Shown here one piece after another: positions 19,006 to 35,715 of a stretch of 35,765 bases of DNA. The DNA is from Opitutales bacterium (GTDB lineage Bacteria > Verrucomicrobiota > Verrucomicrobiia > Opitutales > JABSRG01): contig JBMYOQ010000043.1 of the NCBI GenBank assembly GCA_049599475.1, positions 1-35,765 of the forward strand, read 5' to 3'. Each line of letters starts with the position of its first letter. Position 1 is the stretch's first letter. Position numbers and translations under genes: made by a program. Below the pieces are notes generated by a model. The model had not been told where the DNA came from. It saw nothing but the letters and a program-made list of their open reading frames with translations, and made no database searches.

Positions 19006-19608
19006 ATGTCTAAACCTCTCTTCCGCGCATATGCTGATGATTTGTCTACTGTTGTTGGTAAGATAGATTGGACAGTTCTGGAGCCCATTGCGCATGCCCT
19101 GGTTTTGGCATGGAAGAATGACAGCTCCATTTTTATTTGTGGAAATGGTGGGAGTGGCGGTAACGCCAATCACCTTGCGACAGATTTTGTATGGGGAGTG
19201 GCTCCTAATTCAGGTAAAGGTATGCGTGCGCAGGCGCTAACAGCTAATTCGAGTGTACTGACCTGCTTAGCAAATGATATTTCGTACGAAGAATCTTTCG
19301 CCGAACAGGTAAGAATTTTGGGCAGACCCAGGGATGTCCTTATTGTCATGTCCGGTAGTGGAAACTCGCCTAACATACTGCGGGCGATTCAGGCCGCTCA
19401 GGAAAAACAGATCACGACTATTGGTTTTTTGGGTTTTGATGGAGGCAAGGCCTTAGAAATGGTCGACCTCAAGTTACATTTTCCGATAAATGATATGCAG
19501 ATTTCTGAAGACTTGCAGCAGGTCGCGGGTCATATGCTAACGCGTTGGTTGAATGAGAATTATGAGGCGGCGCTCAGTGAAGTCAGCTTAGATTCTATCA
19601 ATGCGTAA
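19006..19608 (+). CDS. gmhA: SIS-domain phosphoheptose (sedoheptulose-7-phosphate) isomerase
   Basis: CGNGGSGGNANH, TCLAND, SGSGNSPN, GFDGG, MQISED. AGGAG ribosome-binding site at 18994-18998. Confidence 0.85.
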   Translation: MSKPLFRAYADDLSTVVGKIDWTVLEPIAHALVLAWKNDSSIFICGNGGSGGNANHLATDFVWGVAPNSGKGMRAQALTANSSVLTCLANDISYEESFAEQVRILGRPRDVLIVMSGSGNSPNILRAIQAAQEKQITTIGFLGFDGGKALEMVDLKLHFPINDMQISEDLQQVAGHMLTRWLNENYEAALSEVSLDSINA

Positions 19609-20593
19609 GTTAGCGGTCATCGGCAGTAATGCGTTTTCTGCTGCCTATTTCATTAAGGTAGCCCTCGAGGAGGGTTGGGATGTCGTGGGAATCTCGAGGT
19701 CGTCTGAGGTAGCGGAACCGTATCGTCCCTATGCTTGGGATTCACCTTCACATAAAGGGACTTTTCGTTTTGTTCAGGCCCATTTGGCAGACGACACTGA
19801 TAAAATCCTGAATGTCATTGAAGAGGAAGAAATTGCTTACGTGGTGAACTTTGCTTCGCTGGGGATGGTAGCTGAAAGCTGGCAGTATCCAAAGGATTAC
19901 TACGTGACGAATGTTGTTGGTAACGTAGCCCTCCACGAAGGACTGAGACGGTTTGATTTCCTGAAAAAATATGTTCATGTCTCTACTCCGGAGGTCTATG
20001 GTAATACGTCGGGTGACGTTAAAGAGGATTGTGTCTTCAACCCGAGTACTCCGTATGCCGCTTCACGTGCAGCGTGTGACCTTCATTTGCAGACTTTTGC
20101 GGCTCAATATGATTTTCCGGTAGTCTTTACGCGGGCGGCCAATGTGTTTGGTCCGGGGCAGCAGCCCTACCGTATCATCCCGCGAGCCATTTTGTGTGAT
20201 CGTTTACCAGAGACTCTACATTTGCACGGCGGTGGAGTATCTGTGCGCTCATTTATTCATATCCGCGATGTGTCCGTGGGTACTCTGATGCTTTTAGATA
20301 AAGGAGTAAACGGTGAGGCCTATCATCTTTCTACGGATCGTTACGTATCTATCCGTGAACTCGTTGAGTTGATATATGCGCGTATGGGTTCTGATTTCGC
20401 GTCGCGTGTCGAAGTATCACCAGAGCGCCCCGGAAAAGATCCAGCTTACTATCTGGATAGTCAAAAACTACATGATCTTGGTTGGCAGCCTCAAGTTTCG
20501 CTGGAGGATGGTATTGATGAGACTATTCGCTGGATCGATCAATATTTAGCACCGATTCGAGATTTACCTCTCGGTTATACGCATATTCGTTAA
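19601..20593 (+). CDS. NAD-dependent nucleotide-sugar epimerase/dehydratase (4,6-dehydratase-like SDR)
   Basis: IGSNAFSA, HVSTPEVYG, PSTPYAASRAA (YxxxR), R.ANVFGPGQ, RSFIHI.D. Overlaps the gmhA stop. Confidence 0.88.
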   Translation: MRKLAVIGSNAFSAAYFIKVALEEGWDVVGISRSSEVAEPYRPYAWDSPSHKGTFRFVQAHLADDTDKILNVIEEEEIAYVVNFASLGMVAESWQYPKDYYVTNVVGNVALHEGLRRFDFLKKYVHVSTPEVYGNTSGDVKEDCVFNPSTPYAASRAACDLHLQTFAAQYDFPVVFTRAANVFGPGQQPYRIIPRAILCDRLPETLHLHGGGVSVRSFIHIRDVSVGTLMLLDKGVNGEAYHLSTDRYVSIRELVELIYARMGSDFASRVEVSPERPGKDPAYYLDSQKLHDLGWQPQVSLEDGIDETIRWIDQYLAPIRDLPLGYTHIR

Positions 20594-20602
20594 CGTTTTG
20601 TA

Positions 20603-22150
20603 ATGCCCTCGACCACACAGGAAAAAATACTTGCATACGCAGAAGCGTCAGAAGTTTTTTGTAGATTGCGCACTGAGGGAAAGACTCTGGTGCAGTGTCA
20701 CGGAACGTTTGATCTGGTACACCCTGGCCACCTGATTCACTTCGAGGAGGCGAAGGCTCTTGGTGATATTTTGGTGGTTACGCTGACTGGCGAGCAATTT
20801 GTAAACAAGGGGCCTGGGCGCCCTTACTTTAATGATGCTCTCAGAGCGAAGTCACTTGCTTCATTACACATGGTGGATTATGTAGTGGTAATTCCATTTT
20901 CTGCGGCTGTTGAAGCAATCGAATGCGTGAAGCCTGATGTTTACTGCAAAGGTAAGGAATACGAAGATACCCGTAATGATGTAACCGGGAATATTCATGA
21001 CGACCTGTCCACTGTGGAGAAATACGGAGGCAGCATGGCGTATGTGGGAAGCGTCGTGTTTAGTTCAACTAAACTTCTTAACAGAGGCTTTGATACGCAT
21101 TCAGAGGAAGTAAAAGCTTTCTGCAAAGCTTTTGGCGAACGTTTCGACAGTGGATGGTTGCGTGATGAAATAGACCGCTGGAGTGACCTTAAGGTTTTGG
21201 TCGTTGGCGATGCTATCTTCGATAAATATACAACCGTTAATGTTCAGGGTCTCACATCAAAGAACAGAATCATTTCAGGGCGATATGTCGCTGATGATGT
21301 TCAGGCAGGAGGTGCTTTGGCAGTCTACCGTCACGTTCGTGCGTTTACGAATAATGTTAAAATTCTCAGCCTTGTCGGTGATGACCCTGTTACGGACTTG
21401 ATGCTTGGGGAAACTGTTGACCCAGAACATGATTGGCTTATAAGAGATCCTCGCTTTACGACGATTATTAAACAACGTTTTGTGGAGCCCGCCTCCGAGC
21501 GTAAGGAGATTTCCAAGCTCTTCTCGATCAATTATATTGATGATGAAGCTCCAGTGAAGGAGATTCAGCATGAACTCGAGAACCGATTGAAAGCAGTGTT
21601 ATCGGACTTCGACCTTGTGCTTGTGATGGATTTTGGTCACGGGATGATGCAATCTACTGTGCGTGAGATCGTCCAAGATGAAGCTCCATTTCTTTTCGTT
21701 AATTGCCAGACGAATAGCTACAACCGTGGCTACAATATTATTAATCAGCAATATACGAAAATGAATGCCTTTTCTCTTGATCTTCCAGAGCTTGAGTTGG
21801 CAATCAGTCAGAAGACGCCGGACCCTCAGTTGAGCCTGCAAGAACTTAAAGTGTCTTTCAATTCAGATTACGCGTTCCTTACTCGCGGACCTAGTTCAAC
21901 ATTGGGTCTATATAATGGAAAAATGAGCGCATTGTGCCCTGCCTTAGAGTCGGACGTAGTCGACACCATTGGCGCAGGTGATGCGTTCTGTTCGGTGGCG
22001 GCTTTCGCTTGTGCTCGAGGGTTGCCCGTTGATGTAGCAACTTTTTTGGGGCAACTCGCAGGTGCTCAAGCGGTGAAGTATGCTGGCAACACTCAATCAA
22101 TTCGAAAGGATAAGCTGCTGAAAGCGATCAGTGCGCTGACAAGCTACTAG
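20603..22150 (+). CDS. Bifunctional nucleotidyltransferase / PfkB kinase (HldE/RfaE-like, transferase domain first)
   Basis: N-terminal HGTFDLVHPGH, NKGPGRP and SSTKL. C-terminal VGDAIFD, GGA, DFGHG and DTIGAGDAF. Confidence 0.88.
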   Translation: MPSTTQEKILAYAEASEVFCRLRTEGKTLVQCHGTFDLVHPGHLIHFEEAKALGDILVVTLTGEQFVNKGPGRPYFNDALRAKSLASLHMVDYVVVIPFSAAVEAIECVKPDVYCKGKEYEDTRNDVTGNIHDDLSTVEKYGGSMAYVGSVVFSSTKLLNRGFDTHSEEVKAFCKAFGERFDSGWLRDEIDRWSDLKVLVVGDAIFDKYTTVNVQGLTSKNRIISGRYVADDVQAGGALAVYRHVRAFTNNVKILSLVGDDPVTDLMLGETVDPEHDWLIRDPRFTTIIKQRFVEPASERKEISKLFSINYIDDEAPVKEIQHELENRLKAVLSDFDLVLVMDFGHGMMQSTVREIVQDEAPFLFVNCQTNSYNRGYNIINQQYTKMNAFSLDLPELELAISQKTPDPQLSLQELKVSFNSDYAFLTRGPSSTLGLYNGKMSALCPALESDVVDTIGAGDAFCSVAAFACARGLPVDVATFLGQLAGAQAVKYAGNTQSIRKDKLLKAISALTSY

Positions 22151-22163
22151 CTGAGCTAGTGGA

Positions 22164-22258
22164 AGAATTCAGAATTTAGAGATTAGAATTTAGACGATGA
22201 ACAAAAAATATAAGACATCGAGATTTCCAGCCCCCTAAATTCTACGTTCTAAAATCTA
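22164..22258. repeat. Heptamer inverted-repeat element A (intergenic)
   Basis: Left arm agaattc-agaattt-agagatt-agaattt-aga (22164-22194). Right arm ctaaatt-ctacgtt-ctaaaat-cta (22235-22258). Confidence 0.9.
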
Positions 22259-22274
22259 TTTATATCTATAAATC

Positions 22275-23237
22275 ATGAAAATTCTACTAACAGGTGCCTG
22301 TGGGTTTGTCGGAACCCAGTTAACAAAGAGTCTTTTAGATGCTGGCCATGAAGTGATCGGGGTCGATATTATGTGGTTCGGTAATTTTTTGGCGTCGCAC
22401 GAGAATCTTACGGTTATTGAGGCAGATATTCGCGATACCGATAAAGTCCCTATGGAGGGCGTAGATGTTGTATTGCATCTCGCAAACGTAGCCAATGACC
22501 CCTGTGCTGATCTTGATTCGAAGTTGAATTGGGAAGTCAATGCATTGGCCACTAAGTTCCTGGTCGAGAAAGCAATCGACCATGGTGTGAAGCAGTTCGT
22601 TTATGCAAGTTCGGGGAGTGTCTATGGCGTCAAGAATGAGCCCGAGGTTACTGAAGAGCTGTCTCTTGTGCCGATATCCGACTACAATAAAACGAAGATG
22701 GTCAGTGAGCGGGTTCTCCTGAGCTACCAGGACCAGATTGTTGTGAATATCATTCGCCCTGCCACAGTGTGTGGATATTCGCCGCGGATGCGTTTGGATT
22801 TGTCGGTGAATATTCTGACGATGTTGGCTTTGCGTGATGGCAAAATTACGGTGTTTGGTGGCGATCAAACTCGGCCTAATATTAATATCAAGGACATGAT
22901 TCGTGTGTATCACCATTTCTTAGATAAAGGCATGGAATTACCGGGGATTTATAATGCAGGCTTTGAGAATATTTCGATTATGGATATCGCAGAGCGTGTT
23001 ACCGAGAAGGTTGACGCTGAAATCATTGTGACTCCGTCCAATGATCCACGTTCTTATCGCTTATCATCCAAGAAGCTTTTAGATACGGGCTTTACGCCAA
23101 AGTATACCGTGGATGACGCGATGAACGAAGTAATCGAAGCGTGGTCAAGTGGTGTGCTGCAAGATGAGGAGCATTTTTATAATATAAAGACCATGAAACG
23201 ACTGTCTTCAGAACAAGCTGAACCGGTCCTTTCTTAG
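22275..23237 (+). CDS. NAD-dependent nucleotide-sugar epimerase/reductase (extended SDR)
   Basis: TGACGFVG, HLA.VANDP, ASSGSVYG, YNKTK, RPATVCG.SPR.RLDL. Confidence 0.9.
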   Translation: MKILLTGACGFVGTQLTKSLLDAGHEVIGVDIMWFGNFLASHENLTVIEADIRDTDKVPMEGVDVVLHLANVANDPCADLDSKLNWEVNALATKFLVEKAIDHGVKQFVYASSGSVYGVKNEPEVTEELSLVPISDYNKTKMVSERVLLSYQDQIVVNIIRPATVCGYSPRMRLDLSVNILTMLALRDGKITVFGGDQTRPNINIKDMIRVYHHFLDKGMELPGIYNAGFENISIMDIAERVTEKVDAEIIVTPSNDPRSYRLSSKKLLDTGFTPKYTVDDAMNEVIEAWSSGVLQDEEHFYNIKTMKRLSSEQAEPVLS

Positions 23238-23247
23238 GACAGCCTAA

Positions 23248-24087
23248 GTGTCACGTAAAACATCAATCATGTCCGCTGTTAAAGTGCCTATTCAGAATCA
23301 ATTGAGGATGGACGTGGTACGGCTGTCCCATCAGGCGAGGACGCCACATTTGGGGTCCTCATTGTCGTGTGTGGACATGATAGCTGCTCTCTATTTTGAA
23401 GGGTTTTTGAAGCATCGCCCATCCCAACCCGATTGGGAGGAACGCGATCTGTTTTTCTTGAGTAAAGGTCACGCAGTAACGACTTTGTATGCTGCCCTAG
23501 CGCGCTCCGGTTATTTTAATGTGGAGCATTTATTCGAGCGCTATTTTGAGGAGGGTGGACCTTATCCTGAGCACCCGGCACCCAACGCCTTGCCAGGTAT
23601 AGAGTTCGCAACAGGTAGCTTGGGCCATGGCTTATCGGTAGCAACGGGCGCCGCTTTGGCTAATAAAATGTCCGGTAGAGGCAGTCGTGTGTTTGCGTTG
23701 CTCAGTGATGGCGAGTGCAATGAGGGCTCGACCTGGGAAGCTGCTATGTGGGCGGGAGCTCAGGGAAGTCTGCGGATTTGCGCAATGGTAGATTTTAATA
23801 AATGGCAAGCTACAGGGCGCAGTGCTGAGGTCATGGCGCTTGAGCCATTTGAAGATAAATTTCGAGCTTGTGGTTGGCGAGTGGCTCGTATCGATGGAAA
23901 TAATCCGGAGGCAGTAGGCAGAGCTTTATCTGTATTTGAAAACGACGATTCCAGCCCCTTGGCAATCATCGCTGACACTGTGAAAGGCAAAGGCATTTCC
24001 TTTATGGAAGATGATAACAACTGGCACTACCGAATACCGACGGAAGAGGAGGTAGGCAAAGCCAAGCAGGAGCTTGGGCTTTGTTAG
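23248..24087 (+). CDS. Transketolase-like TPP enzyme, N-terminal subunit
   Basis: HLGSSLS, SKGH, HP, TGSLGHGL, SDGECNEG.TWE, TVKGKG.SFME...WHY. Alternative start ATG 23269. Confidence 0.92.
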   Translation: MSRKTSIMSAVKVPIQNQLRMDVVRLSHQARTPHLGSSLSCVDMIAALYFEGFLKHRPSQPDWEERDLFFLSKGHAVTTLYAALARSGYFNVEHLFERYFEEGGPYPEHPAPNALPGIEFATGSLGHGLSVATGAALANKMSGRGSRVFALLSDGECNEGSTWEAAMWAGAQGSLRICAMVDFNKWQATGRSAEVMALEPFEDKFRACGWRVARIDGNNPEAVGRALSVFENDDSSPLAIIADTVKGKGISFMEDDNNWHYRIPTEEEVGKAKQELGLC

Positions 24088-24240
24088 ATTTTAGAGTTTA
24101 GAACTTAGAATTTAGAAAATTATATTTGATAAGCTGCCGTCCACCATTTCCTAAATTCTATCCTCTGATTTCTCATATCCTTTATCAACTCAAGATCACC
24201 AGATCCCTTTTCCTAAATTCTAGGATCTAAACTCTCAAAA
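24086..24240. repeat. Heptamer inverted-repeat element B (one left arm, two right arms)
   Basis: Left arm agatttt-agagttt-agaactt-agaattt-aga (24086-24116). Right arms ctaaatt-ctatcct-ctgattt-ctcatat (24151-24178) and ctaaatt-ctaggat-ctaaact-ctcaaaa (24213-24240). Confidence 0.9.
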
Positions 24241-24242
24241 CC

Positions 24243-25181
24243 ATGCGCAACGCATTTGCAGATGAAATATTAAAGCTCGCTGAAAAGGATGAAAGAATTG
24301 TCCTGCTGTCGGGTGATATTGGGAATCGTCTCTTTGATCCATTTAAAGCTGCGTGTCCTGATCGCTTTTTCAACTGTGGAGTCGCTGAGCAAAATATGGT
24401 GGGTATGGCTGCGGGTTTAGCGCTTAGGGGATATCGCCCGGTTGTCTACACAATCACGTCTTTTCTATTAAATCGACCCTATGAACAAATCCGAATCGAT
24501 GTCGGATACCATCATTTGCCAGTCACCTTTGTCGGTGTGGGTGGAGGCCTAAGTTATGCTTCCAATGGGGGGACGCATCATGCGACTGAAGACATCGCCC
24601 TCATGCGCACGATACCTGGTATGCAAATTGTGGCGCCCGGGGATGCTCCCGAAGTACGGGCAGCAGTCAATTTGATAGGAAAGGTGGATCAGCCTTTATT
24701 CATCAGAATCGGTAAAAAGAAAGAGCCGGTTGTTCATGAGTCACCGGTAGAATATGCACTGGGTGGTTCGATCTGTTTCAAAGAAAGTGGAACCGTAGGA
24801 ATTTGTGTCACTGGGAATCTATTACCGTTTGCGTTGGAAGCGAATGAGATTCTCCAAGGTCAGGGCGTAGATGCTCGGCTCTATCATGCATACTCGCTGG
24901 AGCCTATAGATCAGGGTATCGTGGATACTTTATTCGACGAATGCACCACGGTATTTTCGGTCGAAGAACATTCGGTCCAAGGTGGACTGGGAAGTATTTT
25001 ATTAGAAACTGCTCACCAGCGAGGACACGACACGCGTAAACTTAAAAAAATAGGCACACCTCATAGCTTTCATCACCGAACGGCCACCCAACAGCAGCAC
25101 CGAGAACAGTTAGGCCTCACTGCCGAAGGCATAGCCAAGCAAATACGAGAAAATCTTCCCACCCTGAACTCTAAACCCTAG
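24243..25181 (+). CDS. Transketolase-like TPP enzyme, C-terminal subunit
   Basis: MRNAF, RFFNCGVAEQNM.G.AAGLA, RPYEQIR.D, G.THH..ED, VEEH...GGLGS. Confidence 0.92.
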   Translation: MRNAFADEILKLAEKDERIVLLSGDIGNRLFDPFKAACPDRFFNCGVAEQNMVGMAAGLALRGYRPVVYTITSFLLNRPYEQIRIDVGYHHLPVTFVGVGGGLSYASNGGTHHATEDIALMRTIPGMQIVAPGDAPEVRAAVNLIGKVDQPLFIRIGKKKEPVVHESPVEYALGGSICFKESGTVGICVTGNLLPFALEANEILQGQGVDARLYHAYSLEPIDQGIVDTLFDECTTVFSVEEHSVQGGLGSILLETAHQRGHDTRKLKKIGTPHSFHHRTATQQQHREQLGLTAEGIAKQIRENLPTLNSKP

Positions 25182-25287
25182 TTCCTAAACTCCAAAACCT
25201 AAATTCTAACACCCAAACCCTCCAACCTCCGTGCCCATCCAATCCCCAACAACGAGCAACCAAAAACCAATTCCCAGTTCCCAACAA
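25164..25287. repeat. Heptamer tract C (right-arm type only) plus a second CCA-type heptamer tract
   Basis: ctgaact-ctaaacc-ctagttc-ctaaact-ccaaaac-ctaaatt-ctaacac-ccaaacc (25164-25219), then ccaatcc-ccaacaa-cgagcaa-ccaaaaa-ccaattc-ccagttc-ccaacaa (25239-25287). Confidence 0.85.
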
Positions 25288-25959
25288 CCCACCTCTGGCA
25301 CCGAACTCGATTTCATCGGTCTGGTTCATAAATCGACCAAGCGCGATTATGTGGCACGTGTCACGGAGTATCCGAAAGAGCTAGCTGCCGAAAAAGCATC
25401 TCAGTGGGGGCTCGATTACTGGGATGGTGATCGGAAAACAGGGTATGGAGGCATGCGTTACGATGGCCGTTGGGAGAAGGTTGCACGCGCTATGGCGGAG
25501 CACTACGGCATAAAGTCAGGTGATCGGATCCTCGACATTGGCTGCGGTAAAGGCTTTTTGATGTATGACTTCACTCAGGTCGTTCCGGGGGTCGAGGTCG
25601 TAGGGCTCGATATCTCGGAATACGCTAAGGAACATTCCAAGGAAGAAATTTCGGATAAGATTCATGTGGGGGACGCAGCGGATTTACCTTTCGAAACGGA
25701 TAGCTTCGACTTTGTTGTATCGATAAATGCTTTACATAATCTCGATGCCCACAATCTGGATAAGGCGCTCCGTGAAATGCAGCGTGTGGGAAAGGGCCCC
25801 GCCTTCCTTTGCGTTGAAAGCTTCCGCAATGAATCTGAAAAAGTAAACCTCCTCTACTGGCAACTCACTTGCCGCGCCTTTCATTCCCCAGACGCCTGGC
25901 GCTGGCATTTCGAAACCGCGGGATATACCGGAGATTATGGATTCATCTATTTTGAGTGA
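25231..25959 (+). CDS. Class I SAM-dependent methyltransferase
   Basis: YWDGDRKTGYGG, ILDIGCGKG, GLDIS, LPF..DSFD.V. GTG start with a repeat-derived N-terminal extension. Confidence 0.88.
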   Translation: MPIQSPTTSNQKPIPSSQQPTSGTELDFIGLVHKSTKRDYVARVTEYPKELAAEKASQWGLDYWDGDRKTGYGGMRYDGRWEKVARAMAEHYGIKSGDRILDIGCGKGFLMYDFTQVVPGVEVVGLDISEYAKEHSKEEISDKIHVGDAADLPFETDSFDFVVSINALHNLDAHNLDKALREMQRVGKGPAFLCVESFRNESEKVNLLYWQLTCRAFHSPDAWRWHFETAGYTGDYGFIYFE

Positions 25960-25982
25960 TTGCATCACTCAAAATAGATGAA
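25942..25982. repeat. Perfect 19-bp palindrome across the methyltransferase stop codon
   Basis: ttcatctattttgagtgat-tgc-atcactcaaaatagatgaa. Confidence 0.95.
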
Positions 25983-26424
25983 AGGGTTTAGAGATTAAGT
26001 TTTAGAATTTAGGGATGGAGTCGGGGTTTCGTAAGTTAAAGGTTTGGCAGAGAGGTAAGGCACTTGCCGTGTCGATTTATCGAATCACAGCGTCTCGGCA
26101 ATTTGAGCAGGATTGGGGGTTGAGGGACCAGATGCGACGGTGCGCGGTAAGTATCCCTAGTAATATCGCAGAAGGTGAAGGGCGCAGCTCTGAAATAGAT
26201 TCTGCTCGTTTTTTATCTATTGCGCGTGGATCGGCTGCCGAACTGATTACGCAGCTAGAAATAGCCGAAGAAATTGAATACCTTAAAAATAATATTGTGT
26301 TTGAAGCCATCGACGAGTGTGAGCAGATATCCTCAATGTTGTCCGCACTCATATTAAAGAAACGCGCAAAGCCTAAGAGATAGAGCCTGAACCCTAATCT
26401 CTAAATTCTGAACCCTAAACTCTA
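25983..26424. repeat. Heptamer inverted-repeat element D enclosing the four-helix-bundle gene
   Basis: Left arm agggttt-agagatt-aagtttt-agaattt-aggg (25983-26014) abuts the ATG. Right arm ctgaacc-ctaatct-ctaaatt-ctgaacc-ctaaact-cta (26387-26424) begins 3 nt after the stop. Confidence 0.9.
26015..26383 (+). CDS. Four-helix-bundle protein (23S rRNA intervening-sequence protein / Avd-like family)
   Basis: FRKLKVWQ....L...IY.IT......WGL.DQMRR.AVSIPSNIAEG..R.......FL.IARGS.AEL.TQL.IA. Confidence 0.93.
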   Translation: MESGFRKLKVWQRGKALAVSIYRITASRQFEQDWGLRDQMRRCAVSIPSNIAEGEGRSSEIDSARFLSIARGSAAELITQLEIAEEIEYLKNNIVFEAIDECEQISSMLSALILKKRAKPKR

Positions 26425-26430
26425 TTAAAA

Positions 26431-27465
26431 ATGCGAAGCATTTCCGCCCTCCTCATCGAACAAAAAAAGCCTCTCGAATTGGCAGAGGTCGAAATTCCTC
26501 AGCTTTCCTACGGGCAGGTGTTGGTGGAGGTAAAGCAATCGCGTATCTGTGGTTCACAACTTGGGGAAATCGATGGGGCCAAAGGGCCTGATCGCTGGTT
26601 GCCGCATTTGTTGGGCCATGAAGGAGTCGGAATTGTGCGCGAAATCGGTCCGGAGGTGAGCACTGTGCGAGTAGATGATCGCGTGTGCATGCATTGGCGT
26701 CCGGGCGCGGGTATCAATGCTCGTCCACCCCAATATGATTGGAACGGGAAAACGGTAAATGCTGGTTATGTCACCACATTCAACCAGTATGCCGTAGTTT
26801 CGGAGAATCGCCTGACTACGGTTCAATCCAATGTGTCTGATGACCTGGCATGTTTAATGGCGGATACGCTAACAACTGGTTTCGGGGTCGTGTCCAATGA
26901 CGCGCAGGTGAAAATCGGTGAGTCTCTGTGTTTAATTGGGTGCGGTGGTATCGGGATGGGGGTAATACAAGGTGCCGCATTGGCCGGGGCCTATCCCGTT
27001 ATCGCTGTTGATCTAGTCGACGATAAACTTGCGTTCGCTAAACGTATCGGTGCGACGCACACATTTCGTGGCGATGATCCCGATTTAGATTCTAAGATTC
27101 GAACGATCGTCGGGCAGGCAGGTGTTGATGTTATGGTGGATGGTACGGGAGTGCCCGCTGTCATTGAAAACTGTTACAAGCTAACTCAACCTAGAGGCCG
27201 AACAGTTTTATTCGGAGTCATGGCGTATGATCGTTCAGTAAACCTGCACACTCTACCGTTGCACCATGGTCAAGTCCTTACCGGGAGCGAAGGCGGGCAG
27301 AGTCGTCCCGACATTGACATCCCACGAATAGCCGCACTTCACGAAGCTGGTAAATTTTCGACTGTTGAATGGTTCACGAAAAAAGGAAGATTGAGCGAAA
27401 TAAACGATCTCATCGCAGCGCTCCGCTCAGGCCAAGAAAGGCATGTGGGGGTGAGATTCTTATGA
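26431..27465 (+). CDS. Zinc-binding medium-chain dehydrogenase/reductase
   Basis: ICGS, LGHEG.G, IGCGGIG. Lacks the four-Cys structural zinc lobe. Confidence 0.88.
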   Translation: MRSISALLIEQKKPLELAEVEIPQLSYGQVLVEVKQSRICGSQLGEIDGAKGPDRWLPHLLGHEGVGIVREIGPEVSTVRVDDRVCMHWRPGAGINARPPQYDWNGKTVNAGYVTTFNQYAVVSENRLTTVQSNVSDDLACLMADTLTTGFGVVSNDAQVKIGESLCLIGCGGIGMGVIQGAALAGAYPVIAVDLVDDKLAFAKRIGATHTFRGDDPDLDSKIRTIVGQAGVDVMVDGTGVPAVIENCYKLTQPRGRTVLFGVMAYDRSVNLHTLPLHHGQVLTGSEGGQSRPDIDIPRIAALHEAGKFSTVEWFTKKGRLSEINDLIAALRSGQERHVGVRFL

Positions 27466-27472
27466 ATCTCAC

Positions 27473-27575
27473 AGAATTTAGATAATAGGTTTTAGAATTT
27501 AGACGATACAGTTCAGGCTCTGGAGCCGTTTCACCTAAGCCCTAAACTCTAAAATCTAATCCCTAACTTCTAACA
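27473..27575. repeat. Heptamer inverted-repeat element E (intergenic)
   Basis: Left arm agaattt-agataat-aggtttt-agaattt-aga (27473-27503). Right arm ctaagcc-ctaaact-ctaaaat-ctaatcc-ctaactt-ctaaca (27535-27575) runs directly into the ATG at 27576. Confidence 0.9.
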
Positions 27576-29066
27576 ATGCTCCTCGGTCTCGATATGGATA
27601 ACACAGTCTGCGACTACGGTGCTGCGTGGGCGTGGGCAGCTTCAGAGATATTGGATGGGGCTTGGGATATTACGAGTGATCCGAGGCGTGAACTGAAGAA
27701 GCATTTCCAAGAAAAACCAGGGGGGAATCTGGAGTGGACTGAGTTGCAAGGGATTATCTACGGTCAGGGTATCGAGCACGCCCGAATCCCGGATGGACTC
27801 CTCAGTGCTATGGATCAATGGAGAGCTCAAGGGGGGCGAATTGTTTTGGTGAGCCATAAGACTCGTTATCCAGCATATGGAGAATGCCTTGATCTACATG
27901 CTGCTGCCGAGAAGTGGCTCTATGCCACGGGTCTTATCGGGAAGCTTGATGAAACCTTTTTTGAAGCCACGGTCCAGGCAAAGATCGATCGCATCGCAGC
28001 CCTCCGTCCTCAAGTATTTGTCGATGACCTCGAAATGATCGGCTCCCATCCCGATTTTCCCAAAACGACCCAATTTCTCCATTACTCCAGTCCGGAGGAC
28101 TGGACTCAATTAGAAGCTGTGCAGAAATTAGAGTTTAGAGATCAGGGTTTAGATAAAGAAGAAATGCCCCCTCTGTCCTCGGTTCCAAATTCTAAATTCT
28201 CTAGCCTGAAATCTAAGACTCTTTCCGGCGGCCTCAACAATGCGGTAACATCGGAAGGTGATACGGTCCTTAAAACTTACCCACAATCACCCGCGGATGC
28301 GCGGCGCCGATATGGCCGTGAAGTGGCCTTTCTCGAAACGATGCAAGGCGTCGGGCGCATCCCCAAGGTAATTGAGAAGCACCCAGAAGAGCCCGCACTC
28401 GTTATGGAAAAAATCCCGGGCCGTCTTGTGGACACTTCAAATTTGACGACCACTGATTGGGACCAAGCAGTAGACTGGCTCAAGAAACTCTTCATCAAGA
28501 GTGGATCCCTAGATCGCTCGCAAGGCCCCAAGGCCAACGAGGCTTGTTTCTCCCTTATGGACTATCTAGGCGTCCTTCATCTGAGGCGAGACAGGCTCGC
28601 GCAGAATTTAGAGGCTTCGCAGAGTTTAGAAATTAGGGAACTGAAGGTAGAAAGGAATGATGGGGACCCCTCTCAACTCTCCAATCTAAACTCTAAATTC
28701 TTAAATCTATACTCTGAGCTCGCGAAGCGAGCGTTATCTCACCCTGAGTTCAAAACGAAAGCCCCCGCGTCTCAACATGTCTACAGTCCCTCAGATATAG
28801 GCTTCCACAATACGCTGCGTCTCGAAGATGGCACTCTGGCATTTATCGATTTCGAATTCGCTGGTTGGGATGATGGCGCAGGTTTGCTGGCTGACTTCAT
28901 CTCTCAACCACGTGTTTCGGAGGAAGATAATCCATATGCCTCAAATCCCTTGATGTTGTTGGATGAATTTCGTCTTTGGATCTCCGATTCAGATGAGACG
29001 TTTTTACTGAAATGTGAACTGCGAGAGCTGTGGTGGAGTTTCGTAAAGGCGCTCAGAGTTAATTGA
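27576..29066 (+). CDS. Fusion of a HAD-like phosphatase and an APH-fold phosphotransferase
   Basis: N-terminal LGLDMDNT, VSHKT and FVDDL. C-terminal GGLNN, VLKTYP, SPSDIGFHN and FIDFEFAGWDD. Confidence 0.8.
   Translation: MLLGLDMDNTVCDYGAAWAWAASEILDGAWDITSDPRRELKKHFQEKPGGNLEWTELQGIIYGQGIEHARIPDGLLSAMDQWRAQGGRIVLVSHKTRYPAYGECLDLHAAAEKWLYATGLIGKLDETFFEATVQAKIDRIAALRPQVFVDDLEMIGSHPDFPKTTQFLHYSSPEDWTQLEAVQKLEFRDQGLDKEEMPPLSSVPNSKFSSLKSKTLSGGLNNAVTSEGDTVLKTYPQSPADARRRYGREVAFLETMQGVGRIPKVIEKHPEEPALVMEKIPGRLVDTSNLTTTDWDQAVDWLKKLFIKSGSLDRSQGPKANEACFSLMDYLGVLHLRRDRLAQNLEASQSLEIRELKVERNDGDPSQLSNLNSKFLNLYSELAKRALSHPEFKTKAPASQHVYSPSDIGFHNTLRLEDGTLAFIDFEFAGWDDGAGLLADFISQPRVSEEDNPYASNPLMLLDEFRLWISDSDETFLLKCELRELWWSFVKALRVN
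28123..28219. repeat. Heptamer inverted-repeat element F (in frame within CDS)
   Basis: Left arm agaaatt-agagttt-agagatc-agggttt-aga (28123-28153). Right arm ccaaatt-ctaaatt-ctctagc-ctgaaat-ctaagac (28185-28219). Confidence 0.85.
28603..28728. repeat. Heptamer inverted-repeat element G (in frame within CDS)
   Basis: Left arm agaattt-aga...gcttcgc-agagttt-agaaatt-aggg (28603-28638). Right arm ctcaact-ctccaat-ctaaact-ctaaatt-cttaaat-ctatact-ctgagct (28672-28720), with gcgaagc (28722-28728) complementary to gcttcgc. Confidence 0.85.
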
Positions 29067-30354
29067 TTACACGTGAAGCGATTTTGAAGAAACTCTCGTG
29101 TAATTGATCGACGGTGGATGGGTTCCAAAGATATATTTGATTTTCATTATTCCAACAATTCGCTTTGCCGACTTCCATGTATTTGCGCTCATGCACTGTC
29201 CGATAGTTGTAAAGGACACAAGGGTTTTGATTCATATACGCCATTGTTGACGGTCCAGAAGGGCCTCCAACAAATATCGTTGCTAAATATATTAAGGTGT
29301 AGTCCAAGTTAACGTTGTGTCCTTTATACTCCCGGGTGAACAAACAATTTTCAGCTATATCCGCTGGGAAATCGGCTCGTTCACCATCGATAATAAGCCA
29401 TTTGATTTTCGGATATCTATTTAAGGACTCCCTGATAAGGCTTTGATAGTCTTCAGAGCGAGCGTTTCGTTTGATTGTATACTTATTGTTTCTTATGTGT
29501 GTAGCGAAAAAATAATTACGAATATTGTGTTCTGAAAGATATGTTTTTGCTGCATTAATATGATTATTCTCAGGAATAAGGCGTGGGAGTATTTTGGTTT
29601 CTTGATGAAAGCCTTGGATGAATCTGTAGTAATCTGTATAATTCCGATAAGCGACTCCGCTGTCGGATTTAAATTTGGGAATCACCCATTCGCCCTCAGG
29701 TTTTTCTGCCAAATATCTCTCGAGTTCAAGGGCATCTTCAATATAGATATATTGGTCTTTTCTGCGTGTTAGCGAAGAAAAGTGAATTAATTGGTCGTTG
29801 TTTGGAAGGCCCTCTTTAAGCTCGTTATCGAACCGATAAGGTCGACGAGAATCTCTGAACCAGATAGTTTTGATGGGAATGTTTCCGTAGTAATCGGAAA
29901 TCATATTTAGGATAACCACGAAATTTAGATAATCGCCGAAAGTTTGAGGGACGATGCGGAAGTCCCATACACCTGTGATCCATTTTGGACTGGCTTTATT
30001 GGGGTAAAGCTCGGATCGGCGTTTCAACATTATTTGGTCTACAAACTGGATCTCTGGAAATTTTGAAAATTGAAATGGGTTGAATTCAGAAATTTGATAC
30101 GATAGCTCTTCGTCGGTAGTGTTTTCTATATTGTTTTTCAGGCCTTGGATAAGTGCCAAAAGCTCGAACGTTTTTTCGGGATTCACATAAGGGAGACTCT
30201 TTGCCTCTGTTTTGTCATAAAGTGAAGCATGAGCACTCAATTTTGTCGTGAAGGCTGTGATATGCTTGCGCAGAGCTTCGCTATTCTGAATGGCGACAAG
30301 GTTAAGCGCCTTGAAATAAAATCGATATAGCCTTTTGACAGATTTTTCTTCCAT
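29059..30354 (-). CDS. AT-rich hypothetical protein, putative glycosyltransferase-like (GT-B-type C-terminal region)
   Basis: 431-aa ORF with TFGD, THIRNN....RNA and LIYLATIFVGGPSGPS..A.....P....N, resembling putative glycosyltransferases of glycan loci. Confidence 0.55.
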   Translation of the reverse strand: MEEKSVKRLYRFYFKALNLVAIQNSEALRKHITAFTTKLSAHASLYDKTEAKSLPYVNPEKTFELLALIQGLKNNIENTTDEELSYQISEFNPFQFSKFPEIQFVDQIMLKRRSELYPNKASPKWITGVWDFRIVPQTFGDYLNFVVILNMISDYYGNIPIKTIWFRDSRRPYRFDNELKEGLPNNDQLIHFSSLTRRKDQYIYIEDALELERYLAEKPEGEWVIPKFKSDSGVAYRNYTDYYRFIQGFHQETKILPRLIPENNHINAAKTYLSEHNIRNYFFATHIRNNKYTIKRNARSEDYQSLIRESLNRYPKIKWLIIDGERADFPADIAENCLFTREYKGHNVNLDYTLIYLATIFVGGPSGPSTMAYMNQNPCVLYNYRTVHERKYMEVGKANCWNNENQIYLWNPSTVDQLHESFFKIASRVIN

Positions 30355-35446: not shown

Positions 35447-35715
35447 TTGCCCGGAGTCAAAACGAAAGCACCCGAGCCTCAACATGTTTACAGCCCATCA
35501 GGCATCGAGTTTCACAACGCCCTGCGCCTCGAAGAGGGTTCGCTCGGATTTATTGAAATTGAATTTGCCGGCTGGGATGACGGCGCGGGGCTGTTGGCAG
35601 ATTTTATCTACCAACCGCAAGTCGCAGAGGAGAATCACCCGTTCCGAGCAAATCCATTGGAAATCTATTCAATGTTTAGTTGATGAATATCGGATTCCGA
35701 AGAGATCTTCTACCG
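35447..35715 (+). pseudogene. Degenerate paralogous fragment of the phosphotransferase C-terminal lobe of 27576-29066
   Basis: KTKAPEPQHVYSPSGIEFHNALRLEEGSLGFIEIEFAGWDDGAGLLADFI aligns with KTKAPASQHVYSPSDIGFHNTLRLEDGTLAFIDFEFAGWDDGAGLLADFI. It has no N-lobe, a 1-nt deletion at the 5' end (gagtcaaa vs gagttcaaa), a premature stop and altered catalytic Asp residues. Confidence 0.8.

Follow-up and report, generated by a model that had tools for sequence, protein, structure and literature searches.

The intervening sequence (IVS) in the 23S rRNA gene of Coxiella burnetii contains heptamer repeats, a 28-bp inverted-repeat stem and an open reading frame (ORF) of the S23p family, and is excised by RNase III according to the accessible part of its description (PMC4990558). 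Arrays of GGGAATC and GGGGA(C/T)T heptamers, with a modal number of four units and with function unknown, were described from Xanthomonas and Nostoc by Rehm et al. 2015 (PMC4692102); in the accessible part of that paper 70 convergent inverted pairs are counted among the 186 heptamer arrays of Xcc, the arrays lie between aligned ORFs of random function with the purine strand just past stop codons and the complement just ahead of start codons, and no link is drawn to a four-helix-bundle gene. The TAACTGA tandem repeats of MacGregor 2015 lie ahead of start codons, and in the portion of the paper available to us they are direct and without a partner gene; the words 'intervening' and 'S23' are absent from its main text (PMC4679880). 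Here we analysed the whole of contig C43 (JBMYOQ010000043.1, 35,765 nt, referred to as the window) from the 4.68-Mb genome (G000, 146 contigs) of an Opitutales bacterium, in which a gene of the four-helix-bundle IVP family and gene-less pairs of AGAATTT-type heptamer arrays are found within a sugar-nucleotide operon. Judged from TIGR04138 and from best hits in Opitutaceae, the bacterium is probably a marine Verrucomicrobiota member.

As in the Coxiella IVS, terminal inverted repeats surround an ORF of the S23p family in one of the elements of the window (element D). In contrast to the Coxiella IVS, the elements of the window are located between protein genes and not in an rRNA gene, include gene-less and in-frame copies, and show no G·U bias. 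The best reading of the locus is that of an element family related to the ORF-bearing 23S rRNA IVSs and residing in mRNA operons.

IVP genes are packaged between inverted heptamer arms

The protein encoded inside element D (26015-26383, + strand, 122 aa) is, judged from profile matches, a member of PF05635 (E = 6.5e-36, 123.2 bits against a curated cut-off of 33.8) and TIGR02436 (E = 2.7e-35, 120.9 bits against a cut-off of 24), the IVP family with the S23p/Avd fold, and it matches Xcc0516 at E = 7e-19. The predicted structure has four helices (pLDDT 96.7) and the fold of Xcc0516, BT_0352 and Avd, with TM scores of 0.85-0.89 to the pentameric 2GSC, about 0.8 to 2RLD and 0.81 to Avd. By analogy with the five chains in 2GSC and 2RLD, and with the accessible part of PMC4990558, the protein would form a pentamer. 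It has no catalytic motif.

Packaging of IVP genes in inverted arms is general. The flanks of IVP genes were compared in two phyla, Verrucomicrobiota, to which the window belongs, and the phylum of a Microcoleus record (cyanobacterial). In Verrucomicrobiota the family was present in 110/151 sampled genomes and 117 of the 123 distinct IVP genes had enough flank; at an inverted repeat score cut-off of 12, arms were found at 97/117 IVP genes and 6/209 control genes (83% vs 3%), the best period being 7 in 73 cases and 8 in 18. In the cyanobacterial sample 28/29 IVP genes had inverted arms, so that the link to four-helix-bundle genes suggested in the original prediction holds in both phyla. With a profile built from the upstream arm only, both arms were recovered at 105/159 IVP genes. 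Four to five units per arm were found for 55/75 upstream and 53/75 downstream arms, and few had more than five, in a set that was selected on arm match and in which low counts are under-represented.

The unit tracks the IVP protein over short distances and then changes (profile correlation 0.87 at <30% protein distance and 0.38 at >70%). The idea that period-8 units form a single clade was rejected, given 9 changes for 13 rows. In cyanobacteria, intergenic DNA contains short tandemly repeated repetitive (STRR) sequences, heptamers in direct tandem that are specific to a lineage and are described without any partner gene; the arms of the cyanobacterial-phylum IVP genes include TTAGTCA/TTGGTCA, GGGGCAT and GGGAATT units, and we take these arm units to resemble STRR motifs.

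The proposed full and empty versions were found in the window, as one gene-bearing cassette and gene-less pairs, and also elsewhere. Extra arms of a cassette's own unit were present near the IVP gene in 14/51 loci (37 arms in total over the 51 loci), forming nine left..right pairs in six loci and no reversed pair. Foreign profiles gave 0.08 arms per locus, roughly tenfold below the cognate empties. The window is the densest case of empties seen and one homologous locus, L036, is nearly as dense.

Heptamer arrays in the window

The sugar-nucleotide operon spans 19006-29066 and consists of co-directional genes in the order SIS isomerase, epimerase, HldE-like, epimerase, split transketolase, methyltransferase, IVP, alcohol dehydrogenase and HAD-APH fusion. 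The paired heptamer arrays in this operon are real. A four-unit profile, for which the left arms of the window served as input and which therefore favours the window by construction, gave 20 matches in the genome at a threshold of 18 compared to 0 in a block shuffle (37 and 5, respectively, at a threshold of 14). Thirteen of the 20 fell within 22164-28722 and the rest of the window was free of matches, which agrees with the approximately 6.6 kb to which the arrays had been assigned. The eight 10-mer positions first reported were all exact when the window was searched again, TAGAATTTAG being located at 22184, 24106, 26003 and 27493 and CTAAATTCTA at 22235, 24151, 24213 and 25199. The loops were, as claimed, unrelated apart from the gene of element D: local alignments between loops, or of a loop with the IVP gene, gave best scores of 3-8.5.

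In total the locus contains one full cassette (element D), five gene-less pairs and orphan arms. The six left-arm/right-arm elements of the original prediction were recovered as arrays, with the reservation that the left arm at 28603 is weak, interrupted and missed at threshold 18, and the rule of one right arm per left arm failed for the element at 24086, which has two (24146 and 24208), and for an orphan right arm at 25161-25228. The left arm of element A (22164-22198, + strand, 4-5 AGAATTT-type units) starts 14 nt past the stop of the HldE-like gene, and the right arm (22230-22258, - strand) terminates about 15 nt upstream of the epimerase ATG (22275). Element B has a left arm of 5 units (24084-24120, + strand) with the TAG stop of the transketolase-N gene inside it, a first right arm at 24146-24180 (- strand) and a second at 24208-24239 (- strand) that abuts the transketolase-C ATG (24243). 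Element C is the orphan right arm (25161-25228, - strand), which is without partner and codes for the final residues and stop of transketolase-C. A second heptamer family contributes another orphan arm (25248-25290, - strand), which is in frame with the methyltransferase and would extend the protein at its N-terminus; the start is a GTG at 25231, the ATG of the homologs being absent here. In element D the left arm (25983-26012, + strand) stops 2 nt short of the IVP ATG and the right arm (26382-26424, - strand, 5 units) 6 nt short of the alcohol dehydrogenase ATG (26431), the two being 82% complementary over 28 nt. In element E the left arm (27473-27502, + strand) begins 8 nt past the alcohol dehydrogenase stop and the right arm (27534-27573, - strand) stops 2 nt short of the HAD-APH ATG (27576).

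Elements F (28123-28217, + strand, approximately aa 183-214, at the HAD/APH boundary) and G (28603-28716, + strand, approximately aa 343-381, with the weak left arm) sit in frame in the open 496-codon frame of the HAD-APH gene (ORF 27576-29066). Across element F the fixed motifs are separated by 65 aa, compared to 68-99 in 15 homologs, and the element codes for about 32 aa; across element G the distance is 80 aa, compared to 57-76 in 18 homologs, with about 38 aa coded by the element and a net gain of about 13 aa. From these motif-to-motif spans and element-coded lengths, both elements replace host codons, element F without a gain in length. As identity to the homologs is only about 30%, either insertion accompanied by deletion or in situ conversion via template switching could have produced this. 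At 496 aa, the HAD-APH protein falls below the size range of the 19 fused homologs (513-566 aa); it abuts a convergent gene at its end and may be degenerating. A decayed, frameshifted paralog fragment at 35450-35705 is 76% identical to the APH 3' part, and the matched part starts directly past the right arm of element G.

Promoter and terminator scans were at chance level (9 vs 10.4 and 8 vs 7.9, respectively). RNA contigs were sparse and covered parts of three genes and 25155-25293, which does not by itself prove transcription. With this sparse RNA cover, no joints or indels across the window were present in the assembled contigs of 4/10 listed sequencing runs, and run X2 contained element E unaltered. 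Loose ends of read contigs with CCCTAAAC are presumably algal telomere repeats.

Gain and loss of cassettes at operon junctions

The junctions were compared with those in 160 homologous operon loci (L-numbers), including metagenome relatives. Between anchors, median lengths were 69, 13, 60, 37 and 50 nt in the homologs (n = 16, 73, 31, 99 and 11) and 137, 168, 161, 487 and 150 nt in the window; the largest difference (37 vs 487 nt) is at the junction between methyltransferase and alcohol dehydrogenase. At the HldE-epimerase junction 6/16 homologs had equally long gaps without arrays. At least two period-7 arrays were found in just 9/160 loci and IVP genes in three, L036, L377 and L382, the latter two being related. 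Gene order in the homologous operons (L031-L110 and L305-L384) was heavily shuffled, with arrays present or not.

Presence and absence at homologous junctions, as anticipated for a cassette system, could be seen in that most homologous operons are without arrays and in the comparison of L357, which is empty, with L377, which is full. Flanking genes of these two loci are about 88-90% identical and L357 lacks both cassettes of L377. The methyltransferase-alcohol dehydrogenase junction of L357 is an overlapped stop-start, as in L031, L032 and L034, and the L377 cassette is placed behind the original first two codons and provides a new ATG; no target duplication was found in this pair. At the transketolase junction L357 retains an apparent decayed right arm, indicating that loss happens too, which accounts for orphan arms. 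L377 and L382 carry two different cassettes, at the transketolase and methyltransferase-alcohol dehydrogenase junctions, and L036 has an IVP cassette with a GCAGAAT unit at the transketolase junction and empties at three further junctions, 17 of the 31 matches to this unit in its genome being on its 6.9-kb contig. Unrelated cassettes were thus located at identical junctions in three loci. Right arms of three families are stacked before the methyltransferase gene in L382 and of two in the window.

The IVP 3' end and right arm are tandemly duplicated at L382:1937-2105, and the closest homologous operon has a short CTAAATT-like remnant where its transketolase junction lies (L031:6000-6052). In a genome of the same family (G002), CTAAA-type arrays were seen at L122:7247, L123:6802 and L124:6784, with the pyrimidine arm leading in L122. 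With regard to strain-level polymorphism, there was no match in 6 family genomes, the only protein hit at E<=1e-20 was the window's own, and the best metagenome relatives of the alcohol dehydrogenase reached 58%.

Heptamer families in the genome

An unbiased tandem repeat scan of the genome showed an excess of period 7, with 40 regions at 17/21 matches compared to 0-8 for periods 4-6, 8-11 and 13. The arms that were mapped fall into four unit families, AGGATGA (50 arms), AGAATTT (15), GGGATTT (11) and GGTTATT (7). The AGAATTT family of the window is also present as one pair on contig C11, and the one further IVP gene of the genome, on C10, has its own arms of the GGGATTT family. Arms are mostly paired and of fixed topology, close pairs having one topology per family (10:0, 5:0 and 0:3); two empty GGGATTT-family pairs have reversed arm order, as does the C10 IVP gene. 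The purine arm was found after stop codons for both AGGATGA (19 vs 2) and AGAATTT (5 vs 1). The 'same polarity' remarked upon earlier is uninformative, because a left..right inverted pair is identical on both strands and gives no evidence of a shared direction.

The AGGATGA arms are spread over many contigs between housekeeping genes, and eight of them are near contig ends. The 45 neighbours of 20 other array regions were mostly housekeeping genes, with two GT2 and one EryCIII-like glycosyltransferase. The suggested specificity for glycan loci was therefore abandoned, and a glycan-specific system is ruled out by these functionally random neighbours.

Inverted flanks were also observed at genes for GxxExxY proteins (PF13366, PD-(D/E)XK) at C16:57583, C17:23094, C99:4684, C84:4078 and C26:18697; three of the five flanks scored 24.6-37.6 and two had a 9-base period. 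A region at L060:4180-4370 resembles an empty 9-base element. The GxxExxY genes look like a second kind of cassette that parallels the IVP one and encodes a nuclease fold.

Proposed mechanism and alternatives

Architecture, generality, lineage-specific units, gain and loss at stop-start junctions, fixed topology and 4-5 units per arm are the observations to be explained. We propose, with roughly even confidence for and against, a cassette that is insertable but not itself catalytic: its pentamer would bind the 4-5-unit arms, host enzymes would insert the cassette imprecisely, and its empties would spread. The IVP pentamer would bind single-stranded nucleic acid, each subunit taking one of the 4-5 units of an arm; because left and right arms are complementary, they present a common unit only when read on opposite strands, which is how paired ends behave. 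Since the protein has no catalytic motif, the chemistry would be done by host enzymes, through illegitimate recombination or template switching; the analogy with Avd makes a reverse transcriptase acting in trans another possibility. Imprecise insertion would fit the lack of target duplication, the new start codons, the overwritten codons and the orphan and stacked arms. Empties would be non-autonomous relatives that are retained mostly where coding sequence is spared. A broader proposal is tentative and somewhat doubtful, namely that IVP pentamers might serve to read the sequence in a so far unrecognised class of mobile elements. The ends of these elements would be tandem arrays of 4-5 units, host enzymes or a reverse transcriptase in trans would move them, and their gene-less progeny would be the source of the STRR, GGGAATC and TAACTGA repeats and of the ORF-bearing rRNA IVSs, in-frame overwriting being possible.

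Several results weigh against the proposed cassette. Protein binding and mobility are inferred. A residue-base code between IVP protein and unit was significant solely before dereplication and was lost afterwards (49 representatives; best F 8.4 vs null 95% 11.0), which leaves architecture and homology as the foundation of the binding step. For the largest heptamer family, AGGATGA, no cognate IVP gene was found in the genome, although eight of its arms lie near contig ends, cyanobacterial arms are often much longer than five units, and 37/51 cassettes had no empties within the retrieved 10-20 kb. The loops are neither deletion derivatives of the cassette nor copies of one master, and the operon was not found in close relatives. 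In addition, unit order was weakly mirrored between the arms across cassettes (mean z 0.26, 51 vs 36), and more strongly so where cassettes had been chosen for matching arms (mean z 0.82, 74 vs 23).

This mirrored order, although weak, would be expected if the elements were mRNA IVSs, an alternative that survives best but that we consider unlikely. The arm stem would then be cut by RNase III and the operon mRNA segmented, self-removal would make the cassette tolerated, and the IVP would be cargo or an RNA chaperone. The Coxiella IVS, with heptamers, 28-bp stem, S23p ORF and RNase III cut in the accessible part of PMC4990558, provides a precedent, and arms directly past stops and directly ahead of starts would suit such processing. 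Elements A, B, D and E fold with z of -1.7 to -3.2, but folding is equally good on the opposite strand and elements F and G are weak on the + strand (z -0.8 and -1.2). Arm mismatches in 95 cassettes were G·U in 104 and A·C in 158 cases (122 vs 153 with the upstream-only profile), counts that give no support to selection of a stem through G·U excess; the cyanobacterial sample leaned in the opposite direction (48 vs 30). In the window the numbers were 8 and 7, and cognate arm pairs scored 15.1 compared to 14.5 for cross pairs (residual 0.02). The RNA stems of the original prediction thus show neither a G·U excess nor, in the window, an advantage of cognate arms. Selection seems to act mainly on the fit of each arm to the unit, which suits a binding site better than a perfected helix. 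The arms are nevertheless able to pair, and cleavage by RNase III may occur. Two copies within an open reading frame and the persistence of orphan arms also argue against mRNA IVSs.

A still less probable explanation is that there is no dedicated system and that polymerase slippage and quasi-palindrome template switching make the arrays, with the IVP as a frequent passenger and the cluster arriving with a horizontally acquired operon. Slippage as a source of heptamers is a hypothesis cited in the accessible parts of PMC4692102 and PMC4679880, the unique loops and codon replacement fit in situ conversion, and GC content is lower at 20 to 32 kb of the window (0.44-0.49 vs 0.50-0.55). This leaves unexplained why arms occur at 83% of IVP genes and 3% of controls, why each IVP lineage has its own unit, why the topology is fixed and why unit number drops past five. 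Least probable is post-transcriptional regulation, in which a TRAP-like ring on heptamer runs would act on its own gene and on the neighbouring ones, tuning their termination or translation at selected, not selfish, sites: 4-5 units per arm, the pentameric fold, the occupation of four of five successive junctions in the window and of four in L036, and the regulator suggested for TAACTGA runs ahead of start codons (accessible part of PMC4679880) are compatible with it, but the absence of arrays from most homologous operons, random neighbour functions, fast unit turnover, and in-frame and orphan copies that resemble decay are not.

If the cassette proposal is true, it would give one answer to two puzzles, the role of a very common protein family and the excess of 7-base tandem repeats in bacteria, and these long-unexplained repeats may gain a protein partner. 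A ready test set is available in the window, namely an intact IVP with its cognate unit, 14 naturally occurring variants of the arm and, as controls, foreign units of the same genome, and the in-frame copies illustrate a route by which repeats can rewrite protein termini and loops.

Comparison with known systems

An rRNA IVS proper was rejected because the flanks in the window are protein genes and no Rfam match was found at 21500-29500. Core sites of integron attC arrays have a conserved GTT/AAC with a linked integrase; such an array was rejected because the AGAATTT, GCAGAAT and AGGATGA units are without a fixed GTT and the integron-integrase-like gene of the genome is on C120 (5184-6110), where no array was found. 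REP/REPIN-RAYT systems, miniature inverted-repeat transposable elements (MITEs) and Rickettsia palindromic elements combine an autonomous gene with short non-autonomous inverted elements, in intergenic and in-frame copies. The present elements differ in that there is no transposase, target duplication or master copy and in that the ends are degenerate tandem arrays; an insertion sequence or MITE was rejected since none of the 26 window proteins is a transposase, L357/L377 show no target-site duplication, the loops are unrelated and the copies are not alike over their whole length. A diversity-generating retroelement was likewise rejected, as the window has no reverse transcriptase, template or variable repeat and the five reverse-transcriptase matches of the genome are on other contigs (C3, C31, C51, C52 and C69). 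The Avd protein of these retroelements is described in the accessible part of its report as pentameric, positively charged and RNA-binding (bioRxiv 10.1101/2023.10.23.563531); the window IVP has the same predicted fold (TM 0.81) but only 16% identity.

The arrays of the window and the genome are similar to those of Xanthomonas and Nostoc in having about four units, convergent pairs and a purine arm past stop codons. They differ in that the AGAATTT unit is AT-rich and GGG is missing in most copies; no G-quadruplex is possible with such a unit, so that quadruplex formation cannot account for the 4-5 units. The paired architecture, first thought to be novel, has counterparts in the GGGAATC inverted pairs (accessible part of PMC4692102) and in the heptamers enclosing an S23p ORF (accessible part of PMC4990558). 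In a literature search of mostly freely accessible main texts, no publication linking the IVP gene family to heptamer arms outside rRNA was found. The pieces, i.e. the Coxiella IVS and the Xanthomonas/Nostoc heptamer pairs, are thus already published and, within the literature searched, their general link appears to be new. We conclude that the cassette is a variant of ORF-bearing intervening sequences combined with paired heptamer arrays, and that it is not specific to glycan loci.

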